The notes below the pieces were generated by a model. That model worked only from the letters and a program-made list of their open reading frames with translations. It searched no databases and had not been told where the DNA came from. A stretch of 64,000 nt of DNA from the NCBI GenBank assembly GCA_038046345.1, contig JBBSWJ010000005.1, positions 1-64,000 of the forward strand, given 5' to 3'. A program made the position numbers and the translations under genes. This DNA comes from Nanobdellota archaeon. Its GTDB lineage: Archaea; Nanobdellota; Nanobdellia; SCGC-AAA011-G17; JACPNG01. Below are positions 39,068 to 44,111 of this stretch, in pieces. Numbering within the stretch: position 1 is the stretch's first letter; each line of letters starts with the position of its first letter.

Positions 39068-39091
39068 TGATATCATGTATATTGTGTGTAA
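39068..39091 (-). repeat. 23S processing stem, 3' arm
   Basis: Complementary to 42098-42125 (24 bp including one G-U pair, with a 4-nt bulge). Confidence 0.75.
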
Positions 39092-39435
39092 AATGGTCTC
39101 GAGCTATTGGAAAATGCAGGCTTAATTTCTCGTTGCCTTGAAACTTACACCCCACTCCCATCAAACAGATCTTCTATCTGTGCTCTCCTTCTCTTTTCAA
39201 GGTGGGTTTCGTCCTTAGATGCTTTCAGGACTTATCCCACAAGGCGTAGCTGCCCGGCCTGCCTTGTCAGACAACCGGTACACCAGAGGCCTCGAATCCT
39301 CGTTCCTCTCGTACTAAAGGATCCTTCCCCTCAGAAGATAAACAAATCCAGTAGATATCATACAAACTGTCTCACAACGTTCTTAACCCAGCTCACGATC
39401 CCTTTTAATAAGTGAACACCTTCACCCTTGGCCGC

Positions 39436-39488
39436 AAGCAGTACGTGGAAACTGTTAATTTCGACATACCATGCTCTTTTCCGCGCAT
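39436..39488 (-). other. 53-nt BHB-like intron in 23S (about E. coli 2534/2535, H91)
   Basis: Extra sequence versus the conserved core; central helix GCAG/CUGC, AAA bulge, internal stem. Confidence 0.8.
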
Positions 39489-39501
39489 TTCTGCACGACC
39501 A

Positions 39502-39533
39502 CTCTACGATACAAGAATCTAATCTTTGTATCC
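39502..39533 (-). other. 32-nt BHB intron in 23S (about 2521/2522, H90-91)
   Basis: Central helix CUAU/GUAG; bulges CC|G and AG|U; stem GAUACAA/UUGUAUC. Confidence 0.88.
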
Positions 39534-39577
39534 GGATAGGAAGAGCCGACATCGAGGTAGCAAGCAGCGCCGTCGAT

Positions 39578-39603
39578 AAACTCGGAATCAATTTATTGAT
39601 CCT
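39578..39603 (-). other. 26-nt BHB intron in 23S (about 2477/2478, H89)
   Basis: Central helix GCUC/GAGU; bulges AA|A and UU|A; stem GGAUCAAU/AUUGAUUCC. Confidence 0.88.
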
Positions 39604-42097
39604 TTGAGCTCTTAGGCGCTACAACTCAATTATGCCCGAGATAGCTTTTCTGTCATGTCTAGCCCCCATCAATGAGGACATAGAAGTTCGCTAGGCCATA
39701 CTTTCGTACCTGAATCCCGTATTGTTTGGAATCCAGTCAAGCCAGCTTTTGCCCTTGCACTCCACAGAGAATTTCTAAATCTCTTGAGCTGACCTTTGGG
39801 CCCTACTGATATCCTTTCAGCAGGGTCCCGCCCCAGGCAAACTATCCGCCAGTAGTTGTCTTTCATTACTGAAGTAAGTAATATAGAATACAGAGGGTAG
39901 TATCTCACTTTTGCCTAAACGTACACTGGCGTGCACGCATCAACAGCTCCTACCTATTCTTAACACCATACTCCATACCACAGCTACAAGCTATAGTAAA
40001 GTTCTACGGGGTCTTCGCTTCCCACTGGAATTCTCTGGCCTTTGCACCAGAATAGTGTGTTCGGGAGGTTCTACGTAAAGACAGTGGATACCTCGTTACG
40101 CCATTCATGCAAGTCGTCAATCAAACGACAAGGTATTACGCTACCTTAAGAGAATTATAGTTATTCCCGCCGTTTACACGCTCTTAGCCCCCTTGAAAAG
40201 GAGTTTAAAGTACATGCACTGGGCAGACGTCACCTCCTATACAAACCATTACTGGCTAGCAGGAAGTTTCGTTTTTGTTAAACAGTCGGGCATCCTTAGT
40301 TATTGAATCCTGTACTCGCAACTAAAAGCTACAAGCGCAGGAACCCCTTATGCCGAAGTCACAGGGCCAATATTGCCGATTTCCTTTACGTAAATTACCC
40401 CTCTCATACCTTAGGCTACTAACCCAGGGCACCTGTGCTGGTTCTGGATACGGTTATTTATGATCCTTCCATATTGTTTTTTCACGGGCTCAAGGCATCT
40501 ACCCAATCAACATACATTGACTATTCTCAGCTTTTCTCAGGTTCTCATCATGACAATTCTCCCCTGACATATGCTAATTAACAACCATGTCTATGATTGT
40601 GGGTATAGCCCAAAGCAGCAACAATAAGGCTTTCGTCGCCGAATGTACATAAATAGTACTGGAATATTAACCAGTTTGCCTCTTCCCGCACGTCAATTTA
40701 TGAGTGCAGTTAGGTCCGACTAACTCTTAGCTGAACTGCAGTGCTAAGAAAACCTTGCCCTTTCGGTATTAGAGAGTCTCACTCTATATAGGTCCTACTA
40801 CCACCGGGATTCTTATTCGTACACGGTCCATTTACTTTCACAAGTATACTTCCATCCATGCACGACACCTATCTACCACCTTGCTTTACAGCAAGTCTGA
40901 AGTATCGGTCGTCAGTTTAGCCCCGTTAATTTTCAGGGCATAATACCTTGACGGGTGAGCTATTACGCTTTCTTTAGAGGATGGCTGCTTCTAAGCCAAC
41001 CTCCCCGCTGTCTCTGGTATTACACACCATTCACCCTTTCACACTTAACTGACAGTTAGGGACCTTAACTTCAGGCTGGGATGTTCCCCTTTTGGGACAC
41101 ACGCTTACCGCGCGCCCCTGCTTCCCGCCTTCTACGACGCATTGACATTTGGAGTTGAACAAGAGTGAGAGGAATTTCTTCCCTTAACATTCTAATCCGT
41201 AGCTCTACAACCAATGCTATCTCGAGCGAGACTATTCTGCGGCATATTTCGATAGGAACAGGCTATTAGCAAACTCGATTGGCTTTTCACCCCTAATCCC
41301 AAATCATAAGAGCACATGCACGTAGCACCTCTTCAGGCCTCCACCTCGTATCACCAAGGCTTCACCTTGCTCAGGATTAGATCGTCTGCTTTCCGGTCAG
41401 ACCCCCATGACTTAAGGCGCTTTCACACCTCGCTCCTCGCAAGCTGCGAGCATTTGCTTTCGCTCAGCATTCGTACTAAAAGTACTTACGCTCGCCATGA
41501 AGATCAACTCCCCGGCCCGTTATTCAAAACGTACGGTGCAACTCATGCTGCACCATTCTATAACCGTAAGGTTTCAGGAACTTTTCACACCCTATCAGAG
41601 GTACTTTTCAATGTTCCATCACTGTACTATTTGCTATCGGACTTAAAACATATTTAGCCTTAGAAGTTGATGCCTCCTAAATTCCTGCTCAATATCCAAT
41701 GAACAGTACTATGGATACTTGTAAATCTTTCACGATTATCCTACGGGGCTATCACCCTGTGTCGCATACCATTCCAGATAACTTTAGATAAACATGTTAA
41801 GATGAAAAACAAGTCCAAACACCACATGTTGCTTCTTTTTCAAGAAGTAATTCGGTTTAGGCTATACGGATTTCGCTCGCTGTTACTCACCGCATCTCAA
41901 TTGATTTCTTTTCCTGCGGGTACTAAGACGCTTCAGTTCCCCGCGTTATACATCCTCTCGGATTTAATAGGAAGTCCTATTCGGGAATCATTGGTTCGTA
42001 GGCTGCATGCGCCTCGCCAATGCATTTCGTAGCTTGCCACGCCCTTCATCTTTGTTTTTAAGCCGAATCATCCACCTTACGGCGTAATGACCTATAA

Positions 42098-42125
42098 TTA
42101 CACACAATACCTATACACGATATCA
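42098..42125 (-). repeat. 23S processing stem, 5' arm
   Basis: Inverted repeat of 39068-39091. Confidence 0.75.
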
Positions 42126-42223: not shown

Positions 42224-42331
42224 TGGACCCGTCGGGAAAATCGACGATCCAAGATGTCTAATGCAAATCGTTTTCGAACCCGAGGCCCCTACCTTGCAAG
42301 GGTAATGCTCTACCAGCTGAGCTACGGGCCC
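42224..42331 (-). tRNA. tRNA-Ala(UGC) with 35-nt T-loop intron; CCA not encoded
   Basis: GGGCCCG/CGGGTCC acceptor stem; anticodon loop CTTGCAA; T-stem TCGGG/CCCGA; located in the 16S-23S spacer. Confidence 0.93.
42238..42272 (-). other. 35-nt non-canonical tRNA intron at position 59/60
   Basis: Removal restores T-loop UUCGAAU; stem ACGAUUU/GGAUCGU; 3-nt bulges. Confidence 0.85.
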
Positions 42332-43124
42332 AAACAATTGGATTGACTGTACGAGATTAATTTCAGTGATTAGAATAGTAAAAAAAATAGGAGGTGATCC
42401 ACCTGCAGGTTCCCCTACAGGTACCTTGTGACAACTTACCCCACCTTACTGAATCTAGGTTCGAATACACCATAAAGGTATATGCTCACCTAAATCCTGC
42501 TCGGTTGGATTGATGGGCGGTGTGTGCAAGGCACGTTGACGTATTCACCGGACCCTGATGAGATCCGATTACTAGGAATTCTGGCTTCATGAGGGTGAAT
42601 TGCAACCCTCAATCCGAACTGAGATAGGGTTTAGAGGATTGACTTCTCCTTTCGGAGTTGTAGCCCATTGTCCCTACCATTATAACGCGCGTGTAGCCCA
42701 GAAGATTCGAGCCATACTGACCTGTCATTGCCTACACCTTCCTCCCACTTACGCGGGCAGTCTCTATAGTGTGCACAATCATCCCGGAGGACTTGTTAGC
42801 AACTGTAGATGTAGATCTTGTTCGTTAACTGACTTAACAGTACATTTTACAACACGAACTTACGACGGCCATGCAACATCTCTCGGCTTGTTAGGTACGC
42901 CCTTCAGACGGACCTTCATCCTGCCATCGCCTCTGGTGAGGTTCTCCGCGTGGAATTGAATTAAACCGCACGTTCCACTCCTTGTAGCGCGCCCCCGCCA
43001 ATTCTTTTAAGTTTCAGTCTTGCGACCGTACTACCCAGGCGGCGGATTTAACACCTTCGCTACAGCACTGCACGATCACTTAGAACATGCAATACTTAAT
43101 CCGCAGAGTTTACGGCTAGGACTA

Positions 43125-43155
43125 TTCCCGGTGATATATTATTTATCACATCACT
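43125..43155 (-). other. 31-nt BHB-like intron in 16S (about 800/801)
   Basis: Central helix CCCG/CGGG; bulges AG|A and AA|U; stem GUGAUGU/AUAUCAC. Confidence 0.85.
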
Positions 43156-43162
43156 CTCGGGT

Positions 43163-43194
43163 ATTTAGCAAATATTAGATAACTAAATATTTGT
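43163..43194 (-). other. 32-nt BHB intron in 16S (about 793/794, 790 loop)
   Basis: Central helix UUAG/CUAA; bulges AU|A and AU|A; 8-bp stem CAAAUAUU/AAUAUUUG. Confidence 0.88.
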
Positions 43195-43447
43195 ATCTAA
43201 TCCGGTTTGCTCCCCTAGCTTTCATTCCTCACCGTCAGATCCGTTCTAGACACGTGCCTTCGCCATTGGTCGTCTTCCAAGGATTATCACATTTAACCGC
43301 TCCCCAAGGAATACGCATGTCTTCTCCCGGTCTCTAACTACAGAGTGACCCTTGCACGCTGTCATATTAATGATGACAATTTCACAAAGGACTATTGTAG
43401 TCGGCTACGAATACTTTAGGCCCAATAATCGTGATCGCCACTTGTGG

Positions 43448-43486
<39 letters not shown>

Positions 43487-44111
43487 CCACTTATTCGCCA
43501 AGCTATTTACACTTGGCAAAAGCCTACCCGGAGGTAAGCACTTAGGTTTCCCTTGTCACGCTTTCGCGCATTGCAAAGAATCCTTGCCTGCTGCACTCCT
43601 TAGAGCTAGGGCCCTTATCTCAGTGCCCTTCTCGGGGCTAAGACTCTCATCTCCCCTACTGATCTATGCCTTGGTGGGCCATTACCTCACCAACAAGCTA
43701 ATCAGCCGCAGTCCTATCCTAAGGCGTTTCCTTTCATGAAAGACACATTCCAGTTATCTTTCAATATCCAGGTTTACTCTCAATTTCTCGAGACTATCCT
43801 GAACCTTAGGGCAAGTTAACTACGTGTTACTGAGCCTTTTGCCGGTGCTTCCGAAGAAGCCCCTTGACTTGCATGGCTTACTGAAACCTAATAGCAGCGA
43901 TCTCCCGCAAGATCAACGGGAATTATTTTGGTCGCATAAAATTGGAAATTTTTGTAATACTTTACTACTCATAACCATTGCTGCTTTATCTCGTACATCA
44001 TACTTAATACTTCTGATTAAGTATTCACGTATTATATCACTAAAGTGATATTTTAAGAAGATTAAAAACTATGCTCAATCTTCATTAAGTGAAACAAGTG
44101 TTGGCATCTAG

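Follow-up and report, generated by a model that had tools for sequence, protein, structure and literature searches.

The analysed stretch of DNA, referred to here as the window, comprises 64,000 nucleotides from the genome of a tiny, ultra-small groundwater archaeon of the Woesearchaeota type (DPANN). Its minus strand carries an SSU rRNA gene (42389-43923) and a 23S rRNA gene (39087-42099; LSU_rRNA_archaea), both delimited with Rfam. The assembly, which is 97% complete, yielded a single copy of the 23S gene, so the ribosomes of this cell depend on it, and the gene is interrupted. In a local cmscan alignment of domain V, the terminal loop of H89 measures 28 nt against 2 in the model (an excess of 26 nt) and H91 measures 101 nt against 16 (an excess of 85 nt). 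MAFFT alignments were made to three comparison sets: 15 relatives belonging to the family or order of this archaeon, the two closest relatives without introns (whole operons), and four distant archaeal 23S genes. They resolved exactly three inserts in the 23S gene, of 26, 32 and 53 nt, and revealed no further window-specific insert of 8 nt or more anywhere along it.

The three inserts, designated I1, I2 and I3, were placed on the minus strand by these alignments together with the test of splicing motifs described below. I1 (26 nt; 39578-39603) occupies the terminal loop of H89 (2477/2478), I2 (32 nt; 39502-39533) the base of H91 (2521/2522), and I3 (53 nt; 39436-39488) the 3' side of H91 (2534/2535). 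The exon between I1 and I2 is 44 nt long (39534-39577, minus strand) and contains the 3' strand of H89, the peptidyl-transferase-loop segment GAUGUCGG and the start of H90/H91, while I2 and I3 are separated by a micro-exon of 13 nt, UGGUCGUGCAGAA (39489-39501, minus strand), which supplies the 5' strand and loop of H91. The position numbers come from our own alignment to the E. coli sequence, with GAUGUCGG (A2503-U2506) as the anchor. All three inserts adjoin the catalytic centre of the ribosome; I2 and I3 break helix strands within the universally conserved core, and I1 lies in a terminal loop. An earlier note, made from the letters of the sequence, had described inserts of 26, 32 and 53 nt, the second and third of them only 13 nt of exon apart, and the alignments return the same coordinates and lengths. 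It had also found no open reading frame in any of them, and a length of 26-53 nt indeed leaves no coding capacity.

Group I introns were considered as an identity for the inserts and ruled out, the inserts being far too short for a ribozyme core and without a match in Rfam. No Rfam family other than rRNA or tRNA reached its gathering score in the window. A role of the excised introns as C/D-box or other small RNAs was also considered, and inspection of I3 by eye revealed neither a C box (RUGAUGA) nor a D box (CUGA). ARAGORN detected no tRNA gene within the window; a 57-nt partial tRNA match in Rfam, extending over model positions 1-71, lies in the 16S-23S spacer (42275-42331, minus strand).

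In the canonical bulge-helix-bulge (BHB) register, a 4-bp helix is flanked by two 3-nt bulges, and the RNA is cut after the second nucleotide of each bulge. The register was tested by a script that sets intron nucleotides -5 to -2 against an exon tetrad located two bases upstream of the 5' junction, and in this register the central helix has 4/4 pairs in I1, I2 and I3 alike. At I1, exon GCUC pairs with intron GAGU, the bulges are AA/A and UU/A (the slash marking the cut), and the 2-bp outer helix consists of the native closing pairs of H89. At I2, exon CUAU pairs with intron GUAG between bulges CC/G and AG/U, with a 7-bp intron hairpin on one side and a 2-bp outer helix on the other. At I3, exon GCAG, which is supplied by the micro-exon, pairs with intron CUGC between bulges AA/A and UU/G, and the outer helix is native H91 (GGUCG:CGGCC), the 5 bp of which are reached only after skipping one unpaired U opposite the 3' bulge. 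The canonical 3-4-3 geometry that had been claimed for I1 and I2 is thus borne out, as is the perfect 4-bp central helix of I3 with its "relaxed" 3' bulge, which corresponds to the shift of the outer helix by one unpaired U. The helices on the intron side measure 3-7 bp, and a stable hairpin lies inside every insert. When the introns were shuffled and any of five registers was allowed, 70 (I1), 1 (I2) and 33 (I3) of 20,000 shuffled sequences matched or beat the real motif.

Cuts at the BHB sites would leave exon junctions identical to those of intron-less relatives at all three sites, the predicted junctions being GAGCUCAA-AUCGAC for I1, CUAUCC-UGGUCG for I2 and GCAGAA-GCGGCC for I3. The register at I1 had been read as predicting A at position 2477, and A is the commonest base there in the alignment of 15 relatives (8 A, 4 U, 3 G). 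G2523-G2524 belong to the outer helix of I2 as well as to that of I3, so the two motifs cannot both be fully formed simultaneously, a competition that hints at sequential processing. Taken with the comparative data below, this anatomy makes it very probable that the three inserts are short, ORF-less archaeal BHB introns of the "hairpin" class.

The 790 loop of the 16S gene (43125-43194, minus strand) contains two more mini-introns, of 32 nt (43163-43194) and 31 nt (43125-43155), which interrupt the exon series GGAUUAGAU, ACCCGAG and UAGUCC, the middle exon being 7 nt long. Each has 4/4 central BHB pairs and an 8-bp intron stem, and neither occurs in the two nearest relatives.

The intron-less domain V of one relative was used as the query against 240 genomes of the same order, which appears to be Woesearchaeota/Nanoarchaeota, after which the genomes with split matches were fetched, every insert was located and its BHB register was tested by script. 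About 103 genomes of the order cover the region, according to a hand count of match rows. The I1 site is occupied in five genomes, by 26 nt in the window genome and by 35-46 nt in the others (G155, G071, G051 and G010); the I2 site is occupied in seven (the window genome and six others), by 31-34 nt; and the I3 site is occupied in 12, with lengths of 38, 50, 53 (the window), 73, 83, 87, 115, 178, 186, 213, 379 and 944 nt. Only one other genome searched, G155, has all three sites filled, and about 86 of the 103 relatives with coverage carry none of the three, the nearest relatives being insert-free. The central helix scores 4/4 pairs in all same-site inserts but one. A built-in negative control is provided by the known group I site at reference position 273/274 (LSU 2593), where inserts score 2-3 of 4 central pairs; these inserts of the order are non-BHB and presumably group I.

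Other parts of domain V in the order also hold inserts in BHB register, given here in coordinates of the intron-less reference: 37 and 606 nt at 132/133, 100 and 208 nt at 246/247, 84-1007 nt at 268/269, and 750 nt at 277/278 (from L041, L019, L007, L049, L039, L051, L052 and L013). One further contig (L038, G049:C2) stops exactly at the H89-loop intron site, at reference position 158, where an intron or differences between strains may have interrupted the assembly.

Beyond the order, the I3 site was sought in one genome per prokaryotic species with a pattern made up of TGCAG[AC]A, a gap of 27-57 unconstrained positions, CTGY, any two nucleotides and GCNNCCAAGGGT, and the survey of the H89 (I1) site was confined to the order. 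The scan returned 113 loci; among the 80 matches listed, 30 lie in a 23S H90-H92 context with inserts of 33-60 nt exactly at the I3 site, and many are chance bacterial loci, as the information content of the pattern predicts. The mini-introns at the I3 site share the GCAG/CUGY helix, and the titles of their contigs name Woesearchaeota, Nanoarchaeota, Aenigmatarchaeota, Iainarchaeum, Methanosarcinales, Methanocellales, Freyarchaeota (Asgard), Sulfolobales, Pyrobaculum and Desulfurococcaceae. Site 2534/2535 is a pan-archaeal intron site, common to several archaeal phyla. In the papers on archaeal rRNA introns consulted here we found neither a name for it nor descriptions of the three sites, common as they are in public genomes. 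In the crenarchaeal 23S genes of L085, L111, L143 and L131 (Sulfolobales, Pyrobaculum and Desulfurococcaceae), conserved sequence is lost again about 6 nt past CCAAGGGT, a divergence that suggests a second insert about 18 nt downstream of the H91 mini-intron.

The origin of I3 is illuminated by its longer counterparts. In one genome of the order (G177) the I3-site intron is 944 nt long (L043:310-1253) and is nearly filled by an intact ORF for a LAGLIDADG_3 protein of 294 aa (PF14528; L043:362-1246), and 13 nt upstream of it sits a 34-nt hairpin intron of the I2 type. The 115-nt I3-site intron of G053 has both termini in common with this 944-nt element, and several mid-sized I3-site inserts have the same terminal helix. 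An endonuclease intron and shorter inserts with shared termini and helix indicate that the site hosts a mobile BHB intron together with deletion derivatives of it. The I3 of the window aligns at both ends with introns of 73-87 nt from three genomes of its own family, and these four sequences in all suggest that it descended from longer family introns by internal deletion. I3 would then have arisen by shrinkage of the longer introns that its own family carries at a pan-archaeal LAGLIDADG homing site; no remnant of an endonuclease is visible within its 53 nt.

The introns at the I2 site resemble members of a single family, having an apical AAG...UUCUU stem in common, and all seven genomes that carry one also carry an I3-site intron, the I3 site alone being filled in five genomes. 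A strict I2 pattern run over 401 genomes sampled across the phylum matched only four, all in this order, a count that is an underestimate in that the pattern missed at least one known carrier (G029). The family of 31-34 nt is confined, among the genomes searched, to this order. The constant company of I2 with an H91 intron fits the co-conversion behaviour of hairpin introns beside endonuclease-bearing ones, and it is probably by co-conversion with its I3-site companion that I2 spreads. Such co-conversion has been described in Pyrobaculum oguniense, where the endonuclease I-PogI cuts at the site of the neighbouring intron and both introns convert together with the micro-exon between them (Jay & Inskeep 2015, PMC4496867), whereas here we infer it from co-occurrence only. 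Mobile introns are marked by an intron-encoded LAGLIDADG endonuclease, which I1, I2 and I3 all lack, and the introns of the window are at best remnants or passengers of mobile introns. All three inserts are probably decayed or hitch-hiking remnants of this kind that have no ORF.

Two readings grant the inserts a role beyond this. One sees in I2 a dedicated passenger family whose co-evolution with the H91 homing intron has lasted long enough for its BHB to follow the exon sequence of every host, and in the stack of three 23S and two 16S mini-introns elements kept for an ordered, EndA/RtcB-dependent late assembly or for immunity of the homing site. We regard it as improbable; if it were true, rRNA introns would serve regulation or defence and would not be neutral debris. 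The other, quite improbable, holds simply that the mini-introns are under selection, either as homing-site immunity or as a checkpoint that makes 50S assembly dependent on EndA and RtcB, and is the shielding and maturation-checkpoint idea put forward in the earlier note. By the general logic of the homing cycle, an occupied site cannot be cut by its cognate homing endonuclease, and selection would be consistent with sites in functionally critical helices and with five rRNA introns together in one operon. However, I2 was never seen without an I3-site intron (0/7) and is therefore no shield against I3, its invariable pairing with a neighbouring H91 intron being the opposite of what a shield predicts; about 86 of the 103 covered relatives manage without all three inserts, and the intron sequence is free to drift beyond the BHB pairs. 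The shielding and checkpoint idea finds no support, and it is simpler to suppose that selfish introns have decayed and hitch-hiked.

That the inserts are BHB introns is also argued by covariation at I2. The exon tetrad at this site varies among genomes (CUAU, GUAU, GCAA, GCAU, CUAA and AUAU), and the intron tetrad is complementary to it every time. In an alignment of the seven genomes, pairing within the central and outer helices is complete (42 of 42 cells, 100%), with double, compensatory changes at three of the four pairs of the central helix; sliding the partner by 1-3 columns as a control brings pairing down to 29-43%. At the I1 and I3 sites the exon tetrad is invariant, so that conservation is all that can be seen there, and outside the BHB pairs intron sequence drifts freely. 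Covariation between insert and exon is expected if a BHB must form for excision, and is unexplained if the insert stays in the ribosome.

The latter is what a second kind of explanation would require, in which the inserts are expansion segments kept in the mature 23S rRNA as additional hairpins on H89 and H91. Each insert does contain a stable hairpin, and I1 sits in a terminal loop, sterically the easiest place to extend. This reading is nevertheless very unlikely, as it offers no reason for four exon-complementary bases in the exact BHB register, nor for their covariation, on which we reject it; furthermore, I2 and I3 split helix strands and not loops, the same site in a relative holds a 944-nt element that codes for an endonuclease, and the inserts are wholly absent from the nearest relatives.

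Splicing of BHB introns would draw on two enzymes, and both are encoded in the genome. There is one tRNA-intron endonuclease, EndA (PF01974, 106.9 bits; contig 32, L031:1246-1788), a protein of 180 aa with an N-terminal and a catalytic C domain that matches PDB 1A79, the homotetrameric enzyme of M. jannaschii, from end to end and is thus of the single-unit type. Single-unit (alpha4) EndA is described as strict for canonical BHB motifs, and the outer helices of only 2 bp at I1 and I2, the one-nucleotide offset of the outer helix at I3 and the competition of I2 and I3 for G2523-G2524 count against the BHB reading. The ligase RtcB is found in the same genome (PF01139, 565 bits). In DPANN, however, single-unit enzymes with an extra loop are reported to be frequent and to go together with numerous disrupted tRNA genes (PMC5829648). 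ARAGORN calls only 25 tRNA genes in this genome and introns in 10 of them, at least one call, with a 1936-nt "intron", being surely spurious; it is probable that many tRNA genes are interrupted at positions other than the canonical one.

The presence of RtcB also bears on the proposal that the inserts are cut out and the exons left unjoined, giving a fragmented 23S rRNA in the manner of bacterial intervening sequences. Fragmented rRNAs are known elsewhere, which lends this proposal some precedent, but the ribosome could hardly hold on to an unattached fragment of 13 nt that makes up half of H91, and the products of BHB cleavage are the normal substrates of RtcB in the splicing of archaeal tRNA and rRNA introns, all of which renders it highly improbable. 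It is almost certain, finally, that the inserts are no artefact of assembly or binning and are present in the DNA of the organism: although the genome is a metagenome-type assembly of 35 contigs, the operon lies inside a contig of more than 64 kb, the three positions are occupied in independent assemblies too, by inserts that show the same motif, and register-perfect BHB motifs are not a product of misassembly.

The preferred reading remains that of three short BHB introns. In the pre-23S rRNA, four nucleotides near the 3' end of each insert would pair with the four exon nucleotides that end two bases before the 5' junction, EndA would cleave both bulges behind their second nucleotide, and RtcB would ligate the exons, the 13-nt micro-exon included, to yield a normal H89 loop and a normal H91. 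The introns would be freed, probably as small circles, and in all likelihood they are themselves functionless. The earlier note had proposed three ORF-less BHB introns cut by EndA, and to this are now added the same-site inserts, the covariation, the homing-endonuclease intron and the presence of EndA and RtcB, from which we infer splicing itself. The exact doubly spliced I2/I3 junction was looked for in JGI metagenome contigs and occurs in 17 of them, which are 69-81% identical to the 23S gene of the window over long alignments; at this level of identity they represent other, distant intron-less archaea with the same H91, and not spliced transcripts.

Comparison with known systems places these introns within an established class. 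Classical BHB introns of crenarchaeal 23S genes encode LAGLIDADG endonucleases, such as I-DmoI of Desulfurococcus mobilis and I-PorI of Pyrobaculum organotrophum. The introns of the window have the splicing motif, the enzymes and the host gene in common with these, and the I3-site intron of G177 is of that very type; in contrast, the classical introns are several hundred nucleotides long, protein-coding and located at other positions, whereas those of the window are 26-53 nt long and non-coding. With archaeal tRNA introns (hBHBh' motif) they share identical geometry and cut positions, and 26-53 nt is a typical size for a tRNA intron, but the host is an rRNA, and the central helix is formed from rRNA exon sequence instead of the anticodon arm.

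The closest counterparts are in the 16S genes of Thermoproteales and Desulfurococcales, which contain hairpin BHB introns of less than 50 nt, for example Pog.S1205 beside the endonuclease-bearing Pog.S1213 in P. oguniense, and in Thermoproteales such hairpin introns lie 7-8 nt from endonuclease-bearing ones (PMC4496867). Both groups consist of ORF-less hairpins with a BHB core, interrupt highly conserved rRNA segments and form pairs spaced by micro-exons. They differ in that one partner of a Thermoproteales pair bears a LAGLIDADG gene in some genomes whereas both partners are ORF-less in the window genome, and in that the window offers a DPANN host, a 23S gene, sites 2477, 2521 and 2534, and a micro-exon of 13 nt as against 7-8 nt. 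BHB and group I introns have also been reported to co-occur in archaeal LSU and SSU rRNA genes, the intron-bearing sequences being mostly DPANN (Nawrocki, Jones & Eddy 2018, PMC6125680). The lineages (Woesearchaeota, Pacearchaeota and Micrarchaeota) and largely the gene are the same as here, one genome of the order searched has coordinates that agree with their entry CP010426.1, and the group I inserts at LSU 2593 are likewise seen in our material; in the text consulted, BHB introns are mentioned and drawn (Figure 1), without these three sites, the mini-intron class or covariation. Short hairpin BHB introns are hence already known, as are closely spaced pairs of introns and the presence of BHB introns in the rRNA genes of such lineages, and the rarity implied by the earlier note was overstated, as both short hairpin BHB introns and pairs of introns 7-8 nt apart had been published.

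The finding leaves the known mechanism of BHB introns unchanged. What it adds are comparatively validated mini-introns, presumably spliced by enzymes, from an ultra-small archaeon and from that part of its ribosome where conservation is highest. It also shows that different archaeal phyla share the 23S site 2534/2535, which has a small family of introns as its travelling companion. Inserts of this kind upset the annotation of DPANN rRNA, its primer and probe sites and its phylogenetic alignments. In these reduced genomes, the production of ribosomes would hinge on EndA and RtcB.
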